In this document: positions 3,155 to 64,000 of the stretch, one piece after another
How the letters are laid out: every line of letters starts with the position of its first letter
How positions within the stretch are numbered: the stretch's first letter is position 1
DNA from: Myxococcota bacterium
GTDB taxonomy: Bacteria > Myxococcota > Kuafuiibacteriia > Kuafuiibacteriales > Kuafuiibacteriaceae
Assembly: GCA_036788295.1 (NCBI GenBank)
Contig: DAIQNR010000006.1
Span: 51,523-115,522 of the forward strand
DNA: 64,000 nt
Direction of reading: 5' to 3'
Translations under genes and position numbers: made by a program
The notes under the pieces: generated by a model
Seen by the model: the letters and a program-made list of their open reading frames with translations, nothing else
Database searches by the model: none
What the model was told of the DNA's origin: nothing

Positions 3155-3501
3155 TGGAGTCGGCGGTCGGGCGGTGGCTCGAGGGCCACATCTTTCCCAC
3201 GCAGCGGCTGCTGAGGACACTCATCGACCTGGGGTCGGGCGCGGCGCCCTCCGCTCGGGCTGAGCTGGAGGGTCGCGAGCTGGTGTTCCGGTGCTCCGAC
3301 CGGGGCCGAGGGTTTCTGCGGGTCATCCCCCAGGTGAGCGGCGCCCTGCTCGCCTTTCCGCGCGGAGGCGAGCTCTTCGACCCGAAAGGGCAGCTGCGGG
3401 GGCCGGCCGGACTGCAGCGGATGGTCGCGGTCAAAGACCAGTCCGACCTCGATCCCTACCTTCGCCGCCTGATCGACGAGGCGGCTCGGCTCGATCGATG
3501 A
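3154..3501 (+). CDS. Hypothetical protein, translationally coupled to the upstream lipoprotein gene
   Basis: 115 aa. Starts MESAVGRWLEG at the ATG overlapping the upstream TGA. Mixed, protein-like composition. No recognisable motif. Confidence 0.45.
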   Translation: MESAVGRWLEGHIFPTQRLLRTLIDLGSGAAPSARAELEGRELVFRCSDRGRGFLRVIPQVSGALLAFPRGGELFDPKGQLRGPAGLQRMVAVKDQSDLDPYLRRLIDEAARLDR

Positions 3502-54177: not shown

Positions 54178-54306
54178 CCGGCGTTTCGACGAGGCAGGCC
54201 AGGCGATGGCCGCCATCCGCCTGCGCAGTCCACCGTTCGCCAAGACGCACCTCGGCATGCGCGGACCCGCTCGACAACCTCGCCCGAGCGTGCCATCCCC
54301 GGCCCC

Positions 54307-54933
54307 GTGCTCGGGTGGCTGAAACGCATCTGGCGCACGGCCCCGCCAGAACGGCACCTCGAGTTCCCGGAGTCGGCGATCGCGCACCGTCTCCTCGACG
54401 GGAAGAAGGGGATCGAGATCGGCGCGTCGGCGCACAACCCGTTTGGAATCCCAGGGACGATCTACGTAGACTTCACCGACTCCACCGAGACTTCGTTCAA
54501 GAAGTCGGAACTCGAGCTCGTCCAGCGGACGCAGCGGGTGGACGTGGTAGCCCTCGCTTGGTCGCTCCCTTTCGAGTCCGAGAGCCTCGATTTCGTGCTG
54601 AGCTCGCACGTCATCGAGCACTGCTTCGACATCATCGGCACGGTCGAGGAGTGGTTCCGGGTGCTCCGGCCCGGCGGGCTGGTGTTCATGGTCGTCCCCC
54701 ACATGGACCGAACCTTCGACAAGGACGAGGCTCCCACCCCCGTGAGCGAGCTCGTCGAACGGCACCAGGGACTGCGCGAGCCGACTCGGCCCCCGACCGA
54801 GCACCACTCGTTCTTCCGGACCGAAGACTTCCTCGCGCTGTGCGAGGACCAGCGATGGTCGATCGTCGAGCACCACGACGTGGACGACAAAGTGGGCAAT
54901 GGGTTCATCGTGGTCCTCCGACGAGAGGGATGA
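54307..54933 (+). CDS. Class I SAM-dependent methyltransferase (Methyltransf_11-like)
   Basis: LDGKKGIEIGASAHNPFG...ESLDFVLSSHVIEHCFD...LRPGGLVFMVVP. Confidence 0.65.
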   Translation: MLGWLKRIWRTAPPERHLEFPESAIAHRLLDGKKGIEIGASAHNPFGIPGTIYVDFTDSTETSFKKSELELVQRTQRVDVVALAWSLPFESESLDFVLSSHVIEHCFDIIGTVEEWFRVLRPGGLVFMVVPHMDRTFDKDEAPTPVSELVERHQGLREPTRPPTEHHSFFRTEDFLALCEDQRWSIVEHHDVDDKVGNGFIVVLRREG

Positions 54934-54936
54934 AGG

Positions 54937-56448
54937 TTGCCGGACGAGGCAGACGATGTACGCCGGCGCGGGCGCACGGGGATGGTCATTCTCGGGGCGC
55001 GCTCGGTCCTCAAGGAGGTCGCCGTCGCCGCTGGGAGCCTCGCGCTCGCTCGGCTGCTGGCCCCTGCAGACTTCGGGGTCTTCGCGATCGTCACCTTCGT
55101 CCTCACCCTGTTCCGGAGCGTCGGCGAGGTGGGTTTTGGCGCGGTGTTCATCCAGCGAGCCGAGCCCCCTACCCGGCGTGAGCTGAGCACTGTCTTCTGG
55201 TTTCAGCTCGGGCTGTCGCTGCTGCTGTTTGCGCTCGTCGTGCTCCTCTCCGAAGTCGTCTTCGAGGTCTGGCCGGAGCTTCCGCCGGACGCCCCCAGCC
55301 TCCTCCGAACGCTCGCGGTGTCGCTCGTCCTGGTGGTCCTCGGCGCCATTCCGGGGACACTGCTCGAGCGTGAGCTCCGCTACTTCCCCATCAGCGTCGT
55401 CGAGTTGGTCGGCTCGGTGACTTTCTATGGGACGGCGGTCGGGCTCGCGGCGGCCGGGCTCGGGACCCGCGCCTTCGTCCTTGCCGCGCTCGCTCAGAGC
55501 GTGACCTCGCTCATCGCGCTGTTCATGGCCCGGCCCTGGCTTCCGAGCTTCGTGTTCGATGTCGCAGCGCTGCGGAGGGTGCTTCCGTTCGGCCTGGTCT
55601 TTCAGGGAAAGCACTTCGTCGCCGTGCTCAACGACGCGGTCACCCCGGGTCTTGCCGGGGGCGTGCTCGGGCAGGCGGCGCTCGGCCTCAACAACTTCGC
55701 CCGGGGGACGGCGCTCATGCCGCTTCACGTCGTGGCGGTCATGGGCCGGGTGTCGTTCCCGTTGTTCAGCCGCCTCGCGAGCGACCGCCGGGCCCTCGCC
55801 GAAGAGCTCGACTTCATCTTCCGGCTCTGCGGCACCGCGAGCGTCGGGTTTTCGGTCTTGCTCGTTGGGCTCGGGCCGGAGCTGGTGAGCATCGTCTACC
55901 ACCCGAAGTGGCTTCCCGCGATGCCCGCCCTGTACATCTATTCGCTCGCCTTGAACCTCGGCTTCATGGCCCCGATCATGGCCGGCGCGTTCGAGGGCCT
56001 CGGACGACCGCAGGTCGTACTGCGCCTCGCCACCGCATGGACGGGTCTGAACTGGTTGATCTTGGTCGCTACGCTGTCTTTCGTCCCGACCCTCGAGGCC
56101 TTCGCGCTCGGCTACGTGGCCCACATGGTCATCGGGAACCTCGTGATGTCGCACCTTCTGAAGCGCGAGGTACCAGGCATCCACCCCATCGGGACCTGGC
56201 TGCGCGCCGCCGCGGTGGGGGTCGCCGTGGTCGTGGCGACCCGCGTGGGGGTCTCGCCCTTCGTCGATGGGTTTTGGTCGCTGGCCCTGGCGACCACGCT
56301 GGTCCTTGGCGGGTGGCTCGGGATCTCGGCGCTCGTCGATCCGGCGCTAAGCCGGTCGCTTCGCAGCTTCATCGAGCGGATCCGGCGGAGGCGCGCGCCC
56401 GTTCAGCGACGTGAATCAGCGGCCGACGTGAATCAGCGGCCGACGTGA
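54937..56448 (+). CDS. wzx: Polysaccharide/O-antigen flippase Wzx (MOP/MATE-like); start TTG 54937 or ATG 54982
   Basis: About 12-14 TM helices. N-terminal LALARLLAPADFGVFAIVTF motif typical of Wzx-family flippases. Confidence 0.7.
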   Translation: MPDEADDVRRRGRTGMVILGARSVLKEVAVAAGSLALARLLAPADFGVFAIVTFVLTLFRSVGEVGFGAVFIQRAEPPTRRELSTVFWFQLGLSLLLFALVVLLSEVVFEVWPELPPDAPSLLRTLAVSLVLVVLGAIPGTLLERELRYFPISVVELVGSVTFYGTAVGLAAAGLGTRAFVLAALAQSVTSLIALFMARPWLPSFVFDVAALRRVLPFGLVFQGKHFVAVLNDAVTPGLAGGVLGQAALGLNNFARGTALMPLHVVAVMGRVSFPLFSRLASDRRALAEELDFIFRLCGTASVGFSVLLVGLGPELVSIVYHPKWLPAMPALYIYSLALNLGFMAPIMAGAFEGLGRPQVVLRLATAWTGLNWLILVATLSFVPTLEAFALGYVAHMVIGNLVMSHLLKREVPGIHPIGTWLRAAAVGVAVVVATRVGVSPFVDGFWSLALATTLVLGGWLGISALVDPALSRSLRSFIERIRRRRAPVQRRESAADVNQRPT

Positions 56449-56452
56449 ATCA
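56410..56452. repeat. 17-bp tandem repeat (cgtgaatcagcggccga x 2.5) spanning the overlapping 3' ends of wzx and the RgpF-like gene
   Basis: Copies at 56410-56426 and 56427-56443, partial at 56444-56452. The unit length is not a multiple of 3, and it encodes the last residues of both convergent genes. Confidence 0.7.
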
Positions 56453-57179
56453 ACTCGACTGGGTAACCTCGGGCTTTCATCGCCGAAGCGACCCGGGAGC
56501 GGCTCACCCGTGCCGGGTTGTCTCGAAAGACCTCCACCTTGACCAGAGGCATCCCGAGCTCGAGCAGCACCAGCGGATGGAAGAGCGTGGGGTTGTTGAG
56601 GGTCCGCCGAAAAATCCGGGTCAGGGTTCTGGGCCGGAACAACAGGCGCTCTCGGTCGATGAAGGTGGCCGGGCGCAAGCCGTTTTCCTCGAGGAACGTG
56701 GTGAACCCGAGCTCGTAGCTCCGGATGAGCTGCCACTTGTTGCGGTACGGGAGCACGCTCGCGAAGAACGCTCGAAACGCCGGGTGGTCGAGCGCCGTCC
56801 GCCGGAGCACCAGAAAGTAGCTCTGGATGTGAAAGGCGTGCTCCCGGCTGGCCGTCATCCCCCAGAAGTCCGCCTCCCGCTCATCCATCGCCCGGAACGT
56901 GTCCGCGAGCGAGCCGACGGGCCCGTAAACGCTGGAGTTGGTGAGAATCAGCTCTTCTACGCCGTCGAGGTCGATCCGTTCGAGGGCGTGCTTCCACATC
57001 CCGAAGTCGTACCCCCGATTCTCGAGCAGGATCGGCGGGTCGCAGAGTCTCTCGAGCGGCGCGGGGTCGAGGTCAGGGGCGGTCGAGAGGAAGACGACCC
57101 GGTCCGCGATGGTCCGAAGGCCCTCGACGTAGTGCCGGATGTATGGCTTGACCTCGCCGTCGGCATCATAGTGAGCCAT
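56433..57179 (-). CDS. Rhamnan-synthesis protein F (RgpF)-like glycosyltransferase
   Basis: 248 aa from ATG 57179: MAHYDADGEVKPYIRHYVEGLRTIADRVVFLSTAP...ILLENRGYDFGMWKHAL... matches the Rhamnan_synth family. Overlaps the wzx 3' end by 16 nt. Confidence 0.65.
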   Translation of the reverse strand: MAHYDADGEVKPYIRHYVEGLRTIADRVVFLSTAPDLDPAPLERLCDPPILLENRGYDFGMWKHALERIDLDGVEELILTNSSVYGPVGSLADTFRAMDEREADFWGMTASREHAFHIQSYFLVLRRTALDHPAFRAFFASVLPYRNKWQLIRSYELGFTTFLEENGLRPATFIDRERLLFRPRTLTRIFRRTLNNPTLFHPLVLLELGMPLVKVEVFRDNPARVSRSRVASAMKARGYPVELIHVGR

Positions 57180-57262
57180 CAGCGCCAACCGAGACGTCAC
57201 GGCGCGGGTGGTACGAGCTTGGGCGCGCGCCGACAACCGTCCGGTTCGAAAAGAGCGCCTCG

Positions 57263-58657
57263 ATGAGCATAGACGTCTCGGACATCCTCCAGGAGCTCGC
57301 GGATCGCCCCCTGTCTGCCCTGTTGTGCCTGCCGCCGAGGCTGCTTCGCCTAGCGCGCGGGCCTCGGGCGCCCCGCGTTCCGCCCCTCCCCGACCCGCTG
57401 TCCGAGTTCTCGCTCGCGCTCCCCACCCCTCCGGAGACTCCGGACGTCAGCGTGGTCATACCCGTCTACGGGCAGGCGGCGGTGACCCTGCACTGCCTGC
57501 GGTCCATCGCGAAGGCGCGCGTGGGGCGGTCGCTCGAGGTCATCGTGGTGGACGACCGCTCACCCGACGTCACCCCGCAGCTGCTCGAGCGCGTCTCGGG
57601 GATAAGGGTCGCGCGCCCGGAAGAAAACGGAGGCTTCATTCGGGCCTGCCGACGTGGCGGGGACGCGGCTCGGGGCCGGTTCCTCGTCTTCTTGAACAAC
57701 GACACCGTCGTGACCGATGGCTGGCTCGATGCGCTCATCTGGACAATCGAGACCTTGCCCGGCGCGGGCATCGTCGGGGCCCGGCTCCTGTATCCGAACG
57801 GACAGGTCCAAGAGGTCGGCGGGATCGTGTTTCGAGACGGCAGCGGGGCCCACTTCCATCGGCGCTCCTTTCCCTCGGAAGCCTCCGACTTCGCCCGGGA
57901 GGTCGATTACGTGAGCGGGGCCTGCCTCGCCCTGCGGACGGAGGACTGGCGAGCCCTGGGGGGCTTCGACGAGCGGTACCTCCCCGCGTACTACGAGGAC
58001 ACCGACCTCTGCTTTCGGATGCGCGCGCTCGGAAAGAGCGTCTGGGTTCAGCCGGCGGCCGAGATCTTTCATCTGGAAGGGGCCACGCATGGCCGGGACC
58101 TGAACGTGGGGATCAAGCGCCACCAGGTGGACAACCACGAGCGGTTCTTCGAGCGGTGGCAAGAGACCTTGAAGGACCATCCCGTCCCCGGTCGAACCCA
58201 GCGAGAGAGCCCGTTTGCCGGCTCCCGCCGGCGCGGTGAGGAGTGCCTGGTCTTGGGCCTCGGCGGGGATGCGGACCTCGCACAGAGTGGCCGACGACCG
58301 GTCGAGGTCGCGCTCGCCATCGCCGCCGCCGGCTTTCACCCCGTGTTCTACGCCCCGAGGATGCCGCCTCGGCACCGCGCCGACCTCCAGCGGCTCGGGG
58401 TCGAGGTCCTCGGCCGCGCGAGCTTCGGGACGCTGCGGGCGCTGCTGCGGGCCCCCCGGTCGGGGCGTCTTCGCGCCGCGCTGCTCGCGGAGCCTCGGGT
58501 CGCGCTCATCGAGCTTGCGAGGCGGCGTCTCCCGCAGGCATCGCTCGTGGGGCTCGAGCCGGTTTCGAGCGAGGTCCGTCCCCTCCTCGACGCGATCTGC
58601 CCCGAGCCCCCGCGCGATCTCGGCCCCATGCTCCGCCGCGGACCTCGGACTTCATGA
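57263..58657 (+). CDS. GT2-family glycosyltransferase (GT-A fold)
   Basis: VSVVIPVYGQAAVTLHCLRSI...VIVVDDRSPD...FLNNDTVVTDGWLDAL...(DxD) and YYEDTDLCFRMRALG. Confidence 0.75.
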   Translation: MSIDVSDILQELADRPLSALLCLPPRLLRLARGPRAPRVPPLPDPLSEFSLALPTPPETPDVSVVIPVYGQAAVTLHCLRSIAKARVGRSLEVIVVDDRSPDVTPQLLERVSGIRVARPEENGGFIRACRRGGDAARGRFLVFLNNDTVVTDGWLDALIWTIETLPGAGIVGARLLYPNGQVQEVGGIVFRDGSGAHFHRRSFPSEASDFAREVDYVSGACLALRTEDWRALGGFDERYLPAYYEDTDLCFRMRALGKSVWVQPAAEIFHLEGATHGRDLNVGIKRHQVDNHERFFERWQETLKDHPVPGRTQRESPFAGSRRRGEECLVLGLGGDADLAQSGRRPVEVALAIAAAGFHPVFYAPRMPPRHRADLQRLGVEVLGRASFGTLRALLRAPRSGRLRAALLAEPRVALIELARRRLPQASLVGLEPVSSEVRPLLDAICPEPPRDLGPMLRRGPRTS

Positions 58658-58679
58658 AGGCCGCTCGCGCATCGGGGTA

Positions 58680-59570
58680 GAGTGCCTGGGTGGGCACACG
58701 AGGGATCGGGCTCGCGGCGTCGGTTTGGCGCTCGCGCTCGTCGTTTCACCGAGCGACCAGAAGGCGTCGATGACCTCCGGCTCGCCGGACGCGGTCGCGG
58801 CGTGAGGTACCCATGGCCTCGAAAGTTATGAGCTTCCGGTGCTGAGGGCGTTGGAGTGCTCGAAGGCCACAGCGGCCCCTTCCGCGAGATGGGCGAGGTG
58901 GGGACCGTACCGGCAGGGTGTTGGACACGAAGAAGACGACCGGGTAACCCGGGAGACCCTCACGCCTCCTCGAATGAAGTCCCGCCGAGCCGAGCGCCGG
59001 TGGCCAGACTCCGAGCGCGATGCGTCTGCGGGCGCAGGCATCGCGTGCCCCCGTGTCGGCCCAGAACAGCGCCCGCATCGAGAGGCCCGGCAAGGGGAAC
59101 CGAAGCGAGGGCTGACGGGCGTGAGGGAGTCGGAGGGCCGCATACGAGCGATGACGTCGGGGAACGGGGGCGCCCGGACCCGTCCGAGCGAAGGCGGCCC
59201 GTGTTGATGTGAGCTTCAGGAGGGAACCAGGACCAAGGCCTCGAGCTTGGCTGTAATGTCACCGAAACTGCTGAAGGTAGTGGAAAGAGCGGGAACCGAA
59301 CCCAAAGGGAGGTTCCATACGCTCGCGCATCTCATCGATGTGCCAGCCCTCGAGCGCGCCTACCGGCGAGCCGGAAAGGATGCCGCGTTGGGCGTCGATG
59401 GCGTGACGAAGGATGCATACAGGGAGATGGCGAATTGGCTCGCCCGTAGAGAGCAGAGGCTCCTCCCGCCGGTTCAATCGGCGGCCGGCGGCGCGTACAC
59501 GAGCACCGCCCCGCGCCCCCGGCAGCTGGCGTCGACGTTGGTCCCGCACCGCTGCGGAGCCCCCACGTAG
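58680..59570 (+). mobile_element. 3'-truncated group II intron remnant: about 560 nt of structured 5' RNA plus the N-terminal 100 codons of an intron-encoded reverse transcriptase/maturase
   Basis: ORF from ATG 59256 (GGAGGGAACC RBS): MSPKLLKVVERAGTEPKGRFHTLAHLIDVPALERAYRRAGKDAALGVDGVTKDAYREMANWL..., i.e. the ...KG-GVDG-T...Y.E.L...L...L signature of group II intron RT domain 0. It terminates at 59570 with no RT fingers/palm, and its 3' end overlaps the FG-GAP gene. The 5' boundary was not identified. Confidence 0.45.
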
Positions 59571-60775
59571 AGGCGCCCGTCGACGTCGAAGGCGACGGAG
59601 GTCCCGAACTGCAGGCCCGGGACGAACCAGTCGGAGACGAGGACCAGATCCTCTTGGGTCGGGTCGAGCGGCGCCACCAGGTGGACCGTCCCGTTCCCGT
59701 AGCGCGTGTCGAGGCCGGGGTCGCTCCGGCTCCCCGCCGCCACCCAGCCCCCGCCGGCGTCGATCGCCTCCCCCCGTTTGCGTCCCTGAAGATCGGAGGG
59801 AGGGAGCAGGCTCTTCCAGCCCGAGGCCCCGGGCGCCCGCACGTAAACCTGCCCGTTGTACGGGCAGACCACCTCGTTGGGCGCACATGGGGCCCCGGTC
59901 ATCGCTGCCCTCGTGCCCCGGCACGTGCTCCCCTCCGGTAGACAAGCGTGGGCGAGGGGGGCGGAGACCACCGGCCGGTCGTCGAGCCAGGCGACCGCAG
60001 CTCCGAAGGCCTGGGCGTCGGGCCCGGGCGGGGCGAGCTCGCTGTCCAGGGCCCAGGCTTCTACCCGGTACCCGTAGAGGTAGGCGGCTCCGAGGCAGGA
60101 GGCGCGATCGCAAGGTCGAGCGCCGGCAAGGACCCCGTTCGAAGGGGCACCCACGAGCAGGCGCCCTCCGTTCAGCGCCACCGACCAGCCGAAACGGGCG
60201 CCAGCCCCCAGGCCAGGAGGGATCAGCTCCACCGGCGCCGAGGCGGCCCCGGTCCGATACAAGAGCACCCGCCCTCGGCGGGCGTCGTGGCCCGGGTCGC
60301 CGACCGCGAGCCAGCCGTCGTCCGCGTCCATCGAAAAACCGAGCTCCTCCCCCGCCTCCGGCGCTTCGAGGAAGCTGAGCCCCTCGAGCGTCGGGCTCAG
60401 GCGGGCGATGCGGCCCCCGAGCCCCAACCACACATCGGCCTCGGTCGCCGCCACGGACGCGATGCGGGGAGCGTAGGGGGAGGCGTCGAAGCTGGCGCGG
60501 AAGGTCCAGGCGGCGTCTCGATCGAACGCGAACAGCCGGGGGTCCGAGTCGTCGCCCTGCGCCACGTAGATCGAGCTCGGGGTGGTGGCGATCGCCTCGG
60601 CGAAGCGGCTCGTGTCCCCCGCCGACAGCTTGCCGGCTTCGGTCCAGGCGGTCACGCTGCCGGTGCGGCGGGTGTAGGGAGGTGCTGGCGCCGGCGGCGC
60701 GACGGTCAGCGGGTCGGGCTCACCGCAGGCGAGCGCACCGCCGAGCGCGATGAGCGCGGCCCGGGTGCTCGTCAT
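59474..60775 (-). CDS. FG-GAP repeat (integrin-alpha-type beta-propeller) lipoprotein, third of three tandem paralogs
   Basis: 433 aa from ATG 60775: MTSTRAALIALGGALACGEPDP lipobox. Repeats FGWSVALNGGRLLVGAP, FGAAVAWLDDRPVVSAP, FGTSVAFDVDGRLYVGAP...GAVLVY. ATGA overlap with the upstream paralog's stop. Confidence 0.75.
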   Translation of the reverse strand: MTSTRAALIALGGALACGEPDPLTVAPPAPAPPYTRRTGSVTAWTEAGKLSAGDTSRFAEAIATTPSSIYVAQGDDSDPRLFAFDRDAAWTFRASFDASPYAPRIASVAATEADVWLGLGGRIARLSPTLEGLSFLEAPEAGEELGFSMDADDGWLAVGDPGHDARRGRVLLYRTGAASAPVELIPPGLGAGARFGWSVALNGGRLLVGAPSNGVLAGARPCDRASCLGAAYLYGYRVEAWALDSELAPPGPDAQAFGAAVAWLDDRPVVSAPLAHACLPEGSTCRGTRAAMTGAPCAPNEVVCPYNGQVYVRAPGASGWKSLLPPSDLQGRKRGEAIDAGGGWVAAGSRSDPGLDTRYGNGTVHLVAPLDPTQEDLVLVSDWFVPGLQFGTSVAFDVDGRLYVGAPQRCGTNVDASCRGRGAVLVYAPPAAD

Positions 60776-62109
60776 CGAATCGCCCTCTCGTAGACGTAGA
60801 TCGCGCCGGAGCCGACGGCGCTCGTCCAGGCCGGTTGCGGGGGCACGATGAGCTCGCCGACCCCGACCCCGAGCGAGCCGTCCCCCGGAGCCCCGACCAC
60901 CAGCCCGTCGGGGGCCAGCGCGACCGCGTGGCCGAAGCTCGCCTTCGCCTGGGCGAGGACCCCCTTGAACACGACCGGCTCCGCGCCCGGTCGGGTGAGG
61001 TCGAAGGCGAAGACCGCGCCCGGGCCGCGCTCCTGGTTTCCGTTGCATGACGTGTCGATCCCCGCCAGCTCGGGTGCGCCGGGGTCGTCCCGGACGGTGC
61101 AGCTGCGCTCGTAGGGCGCTCCGACGATGAGGGCCTCGTCGTCGACGGCCACGCTGTAGCCGAACCGAGCGATGGCGCCCTCGAGGACCGAGTAGCGATC
61201 GAGCCGGGCGAGCGTCCCGAGGTCGTGGACCATGACCTCACCGCCGAGCGGGGCCCCGACGTAGAGGCGAGGGCCCCGGATCGCCACGCTGGTCCCGAAG
61301 CCCGTGCAGGGCGCTTCGGCGTCGAGCGGGTCCGCGGGTCGCCAGCCGTCCTGCTCGAGCCGGAAGACCTGCACGAGGCCCCGGGCGTCGGCGCAGTCTC
61401 GTTCGTCCTCCGGGTCCCCGACCACCAGAGTCGAGCCGTCCAGGTCCACCCGTCGCGAGCCCGACTGCAGCCGGCGAGAGGGCAGCGGCAGGGTCTGGGC
61501 GAGCGTGAAGCCGCCGGCCCCGTGTCGGTAGAGATGGACCGCGTCCTCGTCGACCGCGGCGAGCCAGGGGTCGTCCACGTCGAGGGCGAAGCCGAAGCTG
61601 CGGGCAGAGCTCGGGGACTCGAGGACCTGGACCACCCGGGCCTCCGGCTCGGTCTCGAAGACCACGACCTCACCTCGAAGGCCGCGGACCCGCGACCCAG
61701 CGAGCCATCGCCCGTCGCTCGCCAACGCGTGGCCGAGCTGGTCGGCGTCCGCGGTGTCCTCGGGTTGGAGGGGGATGAGCGCGGGGTCGGTAGGGACGGT
61801 CGGGTAGCGCGCGATCAGGCCGCGTCGGTCGCAATCCAACTGGACCGCCTCCGCGGGGCTGCACTGGTGCGAACGATGGGCGGCGACGAAGATCGCGCCC
61901 CCCGCACGCGCGAGGCTCCGGCCGAAGCCGGACTCCGGCTGCCGATCCCGCGGCTTGACGTAGTGCGCTAGGCGAAAGCCGGACTGCGTGGAGCCTGGGT
62001 CGCCCTGGCCGAGGGAGACCTCCTCGGGGCCGCAGCCCAGGAGCGCCCCGGCGAGAGCGCCGCCCAAGAGCGGCGCGCCGATCCGTCTTCGCACAGAAGC
62101 GCTCCTCAT
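60772..62109 (-). CDS. FG-GAP repeat lipoprotein, second of three tandem paralogs
   Basis: 445 aa from ATG 62109: MRSASVRRRIGAPLLGGALAGALLGCGPEE lipobox. FGFALDVDDPWLAAVDEDAVHLY, FGTSVAIRGPRLYVGAP, FGYSVAVDDEALIVGAP, FGHAVALAPDGLVVGAP. ATGA overlaps at both ends. Confidence 0.75.
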   Translation of the reverse strand: MRSASVRRRIGAPLLGGALAGALLGCGPEEVSLGQGDPGSTQSGFRLAHYVKPRDRQPESGFGRSLARAGGAIFVAAHRSHQCSPAEAVQLDCDRRGLIARYPTVPTDPALIPLQPEDTADADQLGHALASDGRWLAGSRVRGLRGEVVVFETEPEARVVQVLESPSSARSFGFALDVDDPWLAAVDEDAVHLYRHGAGGFTLAQTLPLPSRRLQSGSRRVDLDGSTLVVGDPEDERDCADARGLVQVFRLEQDGWRPADPLDAEAPCTGFGTSVAIRGPRLYVGAPLGGEVMVHDLGTLARLDRYSVLEGAIARFGYSVAVDDEALIVGAPYERSCTVRDDPGAPELAGIDTSCNGNQERGPGAVFAFDLTRPGAEPVVFKGVLAQAKASFGHAVALAPDGLVVGAPGDGSLGVGVGELIVPPQPAWTSAVGSGAIYVYERAIR

Positions 62110-63317
62110 GGGGCCCGCCCTCGAGTGTACTTCACGAACCCTCCCTCGGCGCCGGTCACGACTTGATCTTGGTCGGCCCCCAGGACCGCGCCGAAGCCGC
62201 TCCCGAGGCCCTCTTCTGGGCGGGCTCCGATCACGAGGTCGAGCTGCCAGACCCCATCGGCGTCCGGCGTGAACCGATACAGCGCGCCCCGGGCCTGAGC
62301 GTCGCAGACCTCCGCCCCGCTCCGGCCCCGCGCCGCCCCCGGGGTGCACGCGGCCGCGTCGGGGGCGCCCACCCAGATCTGGGCCCCGAAGAGCGCGACC
62401 GCCTGCCCGAAGCCGTCCTGCCGGGCGCCGCGTAAGACGAGCGGCGGCCGCTCCTCCCAGCGCTCGTCCGACCGACGAAACAGGCGGACCTGGCCGAGGG
62501 CGGTCCCGACCGCGAGCCAGCGGCGGTCGAGGGCCAGCGCCTGCGCGAAGCGGGTCCCTCCGATCCGCGCGTCGGGCAGCTCCCGCTCGAGCACCCAGCG
62601 CTGCTCCCGGAGGACGTACAGCTCGACCCGTCCGCTGTCGGGTCGGTCCACGCTGCCGGGACCGGGGGCCGGGGCGTCGCTCAGGGGGAGCCCCACCGCG
62701 AGCCGGGCTCCGCTCATCGCGAGCCGGATGGCGTCGAGCGAGCTCGCGCGATGACGGCTGAGGGTCTCCAGGGTCTCGGTGTGGGCCCACCCATCGCCCA
62801 CTTGGCGGTAGACGGCGACCGCCCCGCGACGGTCTCCGACCAAGCGCGCCGGGATCCCGACCGCGAGCCAACCTTGGTCCATGGCGAGCGCGGCGCCGAA
62901 GCCCTCGACATCGCCGTTGCGGAGGGACACGTGGGTCTGCCCTCCGTCGTGGGTCCGGTAGAGGTCGACCCGGTCGGCACCGGGCGAACCGACCGCAATC
63001 CACCCGTCCGCGATGGCGAGGCTGTCCCCGAAGGTGTCGGCCGCGCTCGAGGTCTCGAGGAGGATGTCCGGCCCGTCGGAGCGGCTCCGGAAGACGACCT
63101 GACGGGGGCAGGGCGCGGCCGGGCAGGCCGCGGCCCGGGTCCAAGCGAGGCTGTCCTCGTCGACCGCCAGCGCGACCGTGCGGGCCGGCGCGACCGGCAG
63201 CTCCCGGGCCGCCGGGATCCACGTCCCGGTCTCGTGGAAGCCTGGGGGGAGGGCCTGCTCGACGATGCAGCCGACGAGCAGGCCGGCCACGCCGACGTCA
63301 ACGTGGACCCGTCGCAT
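62106..63317 (-). CDS. FG-GAP repeat lipoprotein, first of three tandem paralogs
   Basis: 403 aa from ATG 63317: MRRVHVDVGVAGLLVGCIV lipobox. FGDSLAIADGWIAVGSPGADRVDLY, FGAALAMDQGWLAVGIP, FAQALALDRRWLAVGTA, FGQAVALFGAQIWVGAP. Confidence 0.75.
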   Translation of the reverse strand: MRRVHVDVGVAGLLVGCIVEQALPPGFHETGTWIPAARELPVAPARTVALAVDEDSLAWTRAAACPAAPCPRQVVFRSRSDGPDILLETSSAADTFGDSLAIADGWIAVGSPGADRVDLYRTHDGGQTHVSLRNGDVEGFGAALAMDQGWLAVGIPARLVGDRRGAVAVYRQVGDGWAHTETLETLSRHRASSLDAIRLAMSGARLAVGLPLSDAPAPGPGSVDRPDSGRVELYVLREQRWVLERELPDARIGGTRFAQALALDRRWLAVGTALGQVRLFRRSDERWEERPPLVLRGARQDGFGQAVALFGAQIWVGAPDAAACTPGAARGRSGAEVCDAQARGALYRFTPDADGVWQLDLVIGARPEEGLGSGFGAVLGADQDQVVTGAEGGFVKYTRGRAP

Positions 63318-63996
63318 GCCGCTCGGAGAGGGCCTCCACCTCACGGCGGAGGGCGCTCGTGGGGTGTCGGCGGACAAAGCGCGCTGCCGCGCTGCGAAGA
63401 TCCCGGTCCGCGCCCTCGGCCGCCAAAACGAGCAGGAGCACGTAGGCCCTCATGTCCGCGAGCTGACCGGCAGGAAAGCGCGCCGCGTGCTCCAAAGCGA
63501 GCCTGCGCGCCTCGCTCGGGTCCGCAGGCAGGGCGTCGCGCGCCCGGTGGAGGAGCTCGAGCTCGGCTGAGAAGGTCGTGCGCGGCGCGGCCGGACGGAC
63601 CGTCGCCGGGCGCCGCGGCTCAGCCTGCATCCAGCGCGGGCTCGGCCGCGGCGGGGAGGCGCCGAGCTCCGGCTCTGGTGGTGGGGCCGTCCGCTCGGGC
63701 TCAGGGCCGGTCGGCGCGGGTGAGACCGTCGGGGCGTCGGAGGGGGCGGTCGGGGGAGCGACCGTCCGCTCGGGCGACGCGGGAGAGGTCGCCTCGCCCG
63801 CGCCCGGTTCTGCGGGGCTCTGCGACGGAGACAGCGACGCCGCGAGCATGCCAAGCAGGAGGATCCCGCTCACCCCCGCGCTTGCGGTCCCGAGCAGGGA
63901 CAGCCGCGGCGGCGGCGGTCGAGCCGACAGCACCGCGACCTGCGCCCCCACTCTCGCCGCGACCTCGGGGGGGAGCCCTCGCGTGGGTTCGGCCAA
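63298..63996 (-). CDS. Single-pass membrane protein with Pro-rich periplasmic linker, probably partial (continues beyond the 3' window edge); anti-sigma-factor-like topology
   Basis: Frame is open to the window end. The track start is only a TTG. TM segment LSLLGTASAGVSGILLLGMLAASL, then a P/A/T-rich linker and a helical C-terminal domain. Overlaps the first FG-GAP gene start by 20 nt. Confidence 0.45.
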   Translation of the reverse strand: MAEPTRGLPPEVAARVGAQVAVLSARPPPPRLSLLGTASAGVSGILLLGMLAASLSPSQSPAEPGAGEATSPASPERTVAPPTAPSDAPTVSPAPTGPEPERTAPPPEPELGASPPRPSPRWMQAEPRRPATVRPAAPRTTFSAELELLHRARDALPADPSEARRLALEHAARFPAGQLADMRAYVLLLVLAAEGADRDLRSAAARFVRRHPTSALRREVEALSERHATGPR

Positions 63997-64000
63997 GTCG

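Follow-up and report, generated by a model that had tools for sequence, protein, structure and literature searches.

A group II intron remnant, probably truncated at both ends, between convergent GT2 and FG-GAP repeat genes of a Myxococcota bacterium

The locus and its flanking genes

The sequence analysed here, called the window below, is a stretch of 64,000 nucleotides from contig DAIQNR010000006.1 of a Myxococcota bacterium (assembly GCA_036788295.1). Within it, a family 2 glycosyltransferase (GT2) gene and the last of a row of FG-GAP repeat genes converge on a spacer of 816 nt. The GT2 gene (57263 to 58657, plus strand; Pfam PF00535, E 3.8e-22) has its stop codon at 58655-58657 and retains its native C-terminus: the BLASTP alignment of its product to the best homologue, P0122, runs from end to end, and both proteins finish in ...GPRxS and a stop. 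Facing it, the FG-GAP gene (59474 to 60775, minus strand; Pfam PF14312, E 2.9e-13) has its stop codon at 59474-59476; this is the gene called at 275-1576 in the public contig L001, whose position 1 is window position 59200. Both genes lie outside the relic that occupies much of the spacer. Within the intron fragment described below, G+C content is 0.60-0.66, against 0.72-0.75 in the flanks.

The wider gene context, from window positions 54263-64000 and the gene calls of contigs L030 and L001, has a polysaccharide-synthesis set upstream, consisting of a methyltransferase, a Polysacc_synt flippase, RgpF and the GT2 gene. The downstream side has three FG-GAP repeat genes in tandem, one unknown gene, an ECF-type sigma factor and a pair of trypsin-like protease genes. 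In most of its homologues, the GT2 protein is fused to a C-terminal GT1/GT4-type domain (PF13692, PF00534), for a length of 650-800 aa. This domain is absent from the window protein and from P0122, which comes from a Myxococcales MAG and shares 49% identity with it; both are about 450-464 aa long, and their last ~160 residues nevertheless align end to end with each other.

The open reading frame in the spacer

On the plus strand, the ORF listing gives a frame that starts at 59247 (TTG) or 59256 (ATG) and ends at 59570, for 107 or 104 codons, beginning 589 nt downstream of the GT2 stop codon. It bears ...LGVDGVTKDAYRE, and its 104-aa product is stored in public data as the unnamed protein P0001. 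The length of the ORF is no evidence by itself, because long chance ORFs abound in DNA of ~70% G+C: 50 ORFs of at least 50 aa were counted in 8 kb, spread over all six frames.

Homology is more informative. A protein search with the ORF found 401 proteins with E <= 1e-3 (best non-self match 1.5e-22), and the first ~60 residues match the N-termini of intron-type reverse transcriptases (RTs) at up to 85% identity. The closest matches are 73-85% identical, over just the first 50-65% of the query. Where a relative carries a name, it is RNA-directed DNA polymerase or "retron-type" RT; a PF00078 domain is present in some. In the protein alignment, near-invariant blocks of the form SP..KVVERA..EPEGRFHSLAHLIDVPAL..AY.R.RKDAAVGVDGVTK extend to ...AYRE. 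After that point the window diverges completely, whereas the relatives go on with RYRHQPIRRVHIPK..G.TRPIG, and the ORF stops upstream of every RT palm motif. Neither Pfam nor NCBIfam models match the ORF, since it lies upstream of the modelled RT domain.

The remainder of the frame, the tail at 59427 to 59570 on the plus strand, is unrelated to the intron family, as protein and DNA alignments both diverge completely after 59426. It crosses 47 nt of spacer and then runs antisense to the 3' end of the FG-GAP gene, overlapping it at 59474-59570. The 107-codon ORF is a mosaic of ~60 codons from the N-terminus of an intron protein and 48 codons of unrelated read-through. An earlier inspection of the letters and the ORF list, referred to here as the sequence-only reading, had credited the ORF with an intron-RT signature and had placed its end before the palm motifs; the 401 matches to a frame of 107 or 104 codons bear out the former, and the missing continuation of the window bears out the latter.

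Two RT fragments of different source, P0026 and P0084, have in common a frameshifted tail (...EATSCPSSTAWIA.S) after WILEA, which stands in place of the EADIVSFFDS motif.

Full-length relatives and the intron family

A scan of genomes with the N-terminal peptide found at least nine loci, and a scan of metagenomes with a domain-I motif common to the window and the intron L003 found 15 more copies. L003 is a complete intron of ~2.05 kb at 1324 to ~3370 of JALHTD010000172.1, from a Thermoanaerobaculaceae MAG. Its 5' end, GTGCGAC, is at 1324; positions 1-225 of Rfam model RF02005 match there at 114.7 bits, and domain V/VI (RF00029) is found at 3293-3369 with 33.3 bits. The encoded protein, which starts ~630 nt from the 5' end, is 439 aa long, scores 330 bits against TIGR04416 (group II intron reverse transcriptase/maturase; cutoff 300), and contains PF00078 at residues 94-322. 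Its best matches among solved structures are group II intron maturases; on the models for retron St85, Drt2 and Drt3a it reaches ~50 bits, where the cutoffs are 200-390. Across the full-length relatives, RF02005 scores are 115-139 bits. The Vicinamibacterales loci L005-L007 resemble L003, and L005 also has an RF00029 match.

Copies of the family are often fragments inside longer contigs, and the closest relatives of the window sequence, at 85% identity (L012-L014), are on short contigs or are themselves truncated. L012 (1-553) and L013 (9-661) both end at intron position 1130 and have 163-aa products, P0002 and P0003. Four copies (L024, L026, L028 and L029) end at intron positions 331-360, and L028 lacks positions 1-81 as well. 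L008 (4021-4217) retains just intron positions 717-913, and in L005 (3988-5390) one copy starts at intron position 645, beside intron copies in the opposite orientation.

The 5' flanks of L003 and L015-L029 share an exon motif, ...C-R-Y-A-T-A-G/G-N-G-A-A-A-S-A, directly before GTGCGACCAGGC. Eleven distinct 5' flanks fold no better than shuffled sequences (z -2.3 to +1.4) and have no consistent hairpin. A shared exon motif without a hairpin suggests a putative sequence-specific homing site for the family. Class IIC introns, which target terminators or attC sites, insert just downstream of a stem-loop and with little sequence specificity. The copy in the window no longer has its insertion junction, from which its own target would be read. 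The family protein has no endonuclease domain, and IIC and IIA structures score alike with it.

Extent of the intron fragment

By blastn, window positions 58815-59426 align without interruption to L003 1518-2151 (75% identity, E 1e-109); the aligned part of L003 is intron positions 195-828 of ~2,050 nt. Comparison with ten further copies puts the left limit at 58815 (58801 for the closest, L014) and the right limit at 59413-59426. We set the intron fragment at 58814-59426, a length of 613 nt and ~30% of the full element.

Its larger part, 58814 to 59228 on the plus strand, is a ribozyme remnant that corresponds by RF02005 and blastn to intron positions ~195-630; domain I is represented by its 3' part and domain IV by its 5' side, with domains II-III between them. 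Run permissively over 58400-59800, Rfam found a single match, to RF02005 (group-II-D1D4-6) at 58816-58919 on the plus strand; it covers model positions 116-216 of 225 with 32.6 bits (E 3e-7), which falls below the gathering score of 49 bits. The ribosome-binding site of the intron protein, AGGAGG, is kept at 59218-59223. It is followed at 59229 to 59426, on the same strand, by the remnant of the intron protein, codons 1-66, comprising the N-terminal extension and the RT0 region by tblastn and alignments. With the L003 protein as the tblastn query, residues 2-64 align to 59232-59420 at 71% identity (E 6e-23).

Homology to a bona fide intron is thus colinear over both the ribozyme and the protein-coding parts. 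An intron origin lies beyond chance, because the blastn match to a bona fide intron has an E-value of 1e-109 and the RF02005 match one of 3e-7. The derivation of 58814-59426 from a group II intron is therefore strongly supported.

The 3' breakpoint, at 59426/59427, is sharp when six relatives are compared: the window agrees with them up to ...GAC GAA GGA TGC ATA CAG GGA GA. Between 59426 and the FG-GAP stop codon lie 47 nt of unrelated spacer. The sequence-only reading had the 3' end of the intron overwritten by the FG-GAP gene. It is not, because homology ends 47 nt outside that gene.

Lost parts and signs of decay

No other piece of the element was found in the 64-kb window, either by blastn with the whole L003 intron or by tblastn with the L003 protein. 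At gathering score, Rfam gives no match at all in the whole 64-kb window. For domain V/VI (RF00029) in particular, there is none in the 64 kb at gathering score and none at E <= 10 in 58400-59800. The ORF yielded no RT motifs 1-7 and no X/maturase domain (TIGR04416, PF00078), and its homology ends at residue ~60-66, before RT1. Both splice sites and the maturase domain are missing from the whole 64-kb window. Of the hallmarks of a functional group II intron, then, the fragment lacks the GUGYG boundary with 5' domain I, an RF02005 match at gathering score, domain V/VI and a full protein. It can neither splice nor move, nor can a protein of its own reverse-transcribe it, because the splice sites, 5' domain I, domains V and VI, the palm motifs and the maturase are gone.

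What is retained has also changed. The native start codon, ATG, has become AGG at 59229-59231: at the protein start the window has GGAGGGAACCAGG in place of the GGAGGGAACCATG shared by all five relatives in the alignment. Private changes at sites that are invariant in eight relatives account for 5 of the 56 residues compared. The dN/dS of the retained codons against the relatives is 0.14-0.28, which is no higher than among the relatives, gives no strong signal of decay and points to little decay of the coding part; most of the divergence therefore predates inactivation.

Assembly support

In three runs of one study, Logan contigs agree with the window at 99.96-100%, and with both flanks at 100%. 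On the GT2 side they end at 58743 (L030), and on the FG-GAP side they restart at 59200 (L001, L002). Contigs over 58744-59199 were sought via two ORFs from that stretch, neither of which is on record. The 3' junction at 59426 is spanned by two independent Logan assemblies at 100% identity, and the 5' junction (58793-58814) is backed by the window contig only. From the left break, at 58743, it is another 50-70 nt to the point where intron homology is first detected.

From the restart at 59200 to the private T-to-G change at 59230, the distance is exactly 30 nt. If Logan contigs are built with k = 31, this fits a sibling copy of the intron that has kept its ATG and occurs in the same samples. 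Such a sibling need not share a genome with the window sequence, since exact stretches of up to 39 nt are common to the window and relatives at 59191-59229, and L013 has 39 identical bases there. A broader reading, in which the site itself varies in the sampled population (some strains, or a second locus, would carry a close copy with its ATG intact and perhaps the full element) and the structured relic RNA is kept as a 3'-UTR or an insulator between the convergent GT2 and FG-GAP units, has in our estimation a slender chance of being right.

These breaks bear on the possibility of an assembly artefact, a chimeric join through a multi-copy intron that would leave one or both truncation boundaries unreal. 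In its favour, contigs from three runs fail to bridge 58744-59199, and related copies in one sample, if they share exact stretches of up to 39 nt as the relatives do, would make the assembly graph hard to resolve. However, both boundaries are internal to the intron, which makes a chimeric join unlikely, for a repeat-mediated join normally keeps an intron terminus next to unique DNA. The junction at 59426 is moreover present in two independent assemblies, both flanks occur at 100% identity in runs of one study, and the fragment bears decay marks of its own. We judge an artefact to be distinctly unlikely, and prefer to regard both boundaries as those of a truncated intron fragment.

The missing 5' end

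Between the GT2 stop codon and the fragment, at 58658 to 58813, lies spacer in which nhmmer, blastn, Rfam and a shuffle test detect no intron homology, at the place where intron positions 1-194 would stand. The intron's first ~194 nt are absent, and with them its GUGCG boundary and the 5' half of domain I. When 14 copies were used to build an nhmmer profile of intron positions 1-320, the window matched it only from profile position 194 on (58814-58926, E 3e-15). The envelope of this match begins at 58793, and the last ~20 nt of the spacer (58793-58813) may be very decayed intron.

We also weighed another history, in which the intron was truncated at its 3' end alone and its 5' end and domains I-III are present from ~58680, merely diverged. 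The spacing is near what this would require, with 589 nt from the GT2 stop codon to the ORF compared with ~630 nt in L003, and MAFFT alignment to the relatives, although not positive for the missing 5' end, gave a few weak matches. Against this, there is no GUGYG boundary and profile positions 1-193 are unmatched; RF02005 positions 1-115 find no match even at E <= 10 in 58400-59800; and the local alignment score of 58658-58813 against intron positions 1-194 equals the shuffle mean. RNA folding of the same spacer is no better than that of shuffles (z +0.87). Divergence is a poor explanation: between L003 and L006 it is as great as between either of them and the window, and these two can still be aligned over positions 1-349, at 75% identity. 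Position also argues against it. Of the 16 family copies examined, 14 have GTGCGAC at a distance of 267-269 nt upstream of a motif that the window carries at 58889, and this spacing predicts an intact 5' end near 58621, within the GT2 gene. An intact 5' end is not at the predicted place, because ~58621 is inside a coding region with a native C-terminus. Retention of a diverged 5' end is thus very unlikely, and by these comparisons the intron 5' end is missing, not just diverged.

One short match within the spacer is also in line with a diverged 5' end: 25 nt at 58753-58777 resemble intron positions 236-260, in domain I, with an nhmmer E-value of 0.004 in a search of 701 nt. This stretch is 86% identical over 22 nt to many copies and lies ~100 nt ahead of the place where the fragment carries the segment proper. 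Its status is doubtful, and it may be a chance match or a scrap of a rearranged piece.

The sequence-only reading holds up in its outline: a decayed, truncated group II intron stands between the GT2 and FG-GAP genes, as DNA homology, the partial domain-I covariance-model match at 58816-58919 and protein homology concur. Both matches to intron-encoded proteins and an intron-like structure were found, and domain V, which that reading had thought probably absent, is found by Rfam nowhere in the 64-kb window. Its account of the 5' side has to be amended. The "5' ribozyme region" is not intact, and the truncation that it recognized at the 3' side is accompanied by loss of the 5' end. Of the ~560 nt upstream of the ORF that it assigned to domains I-III, about 415 nt (58814-59228) are ribozyme and 156 nt are unrelated spacer.

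Interpretation

Our preferred reading, to which we give a probability of about 0.9, is that 58814-59426 represents about 30% of a mobile group II intron, an inert internal piece truncated at both ends by deletion. A full-length intron, or a copy already truncated, would once have stood in the spacer on which the GT2 and FG-GAP genes converge. Deletions would then have taken the first ~194 nt and all that lay beyond codon ~66 of the reverse transcriptase/maturase gene. What is left is the 3' part of domain I together with domains II-III, the beginning of domain IV, the ribosome-binding site and 66 codons with an AGG start. It lies as debris between two convergent genes and harms neither of them. 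We infer both the deletion after insertion at this site and the absence of function. The order of insertion and deletion can only be inferred because no orthologous locus without the fragment was found for comparison; the nearest GT2 relative is 49% identical and is not syntenic.

Absence of function might be contested on the grounds that the host has kept the fragment, either as a structured RNA or as a peptide of ~60 residues, serving for example as a 3'-UTR stabiliser or an insulator. The retained sub-helix of domain I still scores as structured (RF02005 E 3e-7), and Toro et al. speculate that conserved intergenic intron fragments may turn cis-regulatory (PMC4181065). The start codon is lost, however, and among the matches listed none shows conservation of the locus in another genome. 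The fragment region has no promoter-like site and no terminator-like site on the plus strand; the sole terminator-like site is weak, on the minus strand and inside the intron fragment. Nothing sets the fragment apart from neutral debris, and co-option seems to us extremely unlikely. A chance ORF in G+C-rich DNA, where long chance ORFs abound, or a piece of a non-intron RT such as a retron or defence RT, as the JGI label "retron-type reverse transcriptase" on some relatives might suggest, has a negligible probability and is refuted by the RF02005, blastn, tblastn and TIGR04416 results, for homology reaches 415 nt upstream into ribozyme sequence and the full-length relatives pass the TIGR04416 cutoff but remain at ~50 bits on retron and Drt models with cutoffs of 200-390.

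Read as an inert intron fragment, the locus has some consequences for annotation. P0001 is not a real protein, and its entry should be replaced by a group II intron remnant or a pseudogene. The 816-nt spacer between the GT2 and FG-GAP genes is explained by retroelement debris. An endonuclease-less intron lineage, present also in Acidobacteriota MAGs (Thermoanaerobaculaceae and Vicinamibacterales), once invaded this genome, as the fragment shows. The locus is one more case of bacterial group II introns decaying to intergenic fragments, with little meaning beyond annotation.

Comparison with known systems

Within its own family, the fragment resembles L003, L015, L019 and L020 in its RF02005-type domain I and in a protein N-terminus of the form MSPxLLKVVERA...GVDGVTK. 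Those four are complete, with GUGCGAC, a full domain I, a 439-aa RT/maturase without endonuclease, and domains V/VI, whereas the window retains ~30% and no catalytic parts. The full-length family protein matches the structures 7UIM (Eubacterium rectale IIC), 5G2X (LtrA) and 6AR1 (GsI-IIC) with E-values of 1e-36 to 6e-41. Of these structures the window keeps the equivalent of the N-terminal extension and RT0; since its peptide stops before RT1, it gives no basis for predicting a fold or an activity.

In bacteria, truncated copies of group II introns are reported to be in the majority (PMC4028801). Toro et al. note that bacterial introns lose their 3' terminus as they decay, and that intergenic fragments made up of domains I-III with some of domain IV survive for a long time (PMC4181065). 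A close counterpart is FRE652, an intergenic remnant of 652 nt with domains I-III, part of domain IV and a damaged start codon (Toro et al. 2014; PMC4181065). Like FRE652 and the fragmented RmInt1-like introns of Sinorhizobium, the window fragment is intergenic, non-functional, ~600-650 nt long and composed of domains I-III with part of IV; as in FRE652, truncation lies near the start of the protein gene, and the start codon is damaged. The two belong to different intron lineages and different hosts, and FRE652 is conserved across strains. FRE652 keeps its 5' end save for the first G, together with the exon-binding sites, whereas the window fragment has lost the first ~194 nt. The fragment is an ordinary feature of an already known kind, the same kind as FRE652 with the addition of 5' loss.
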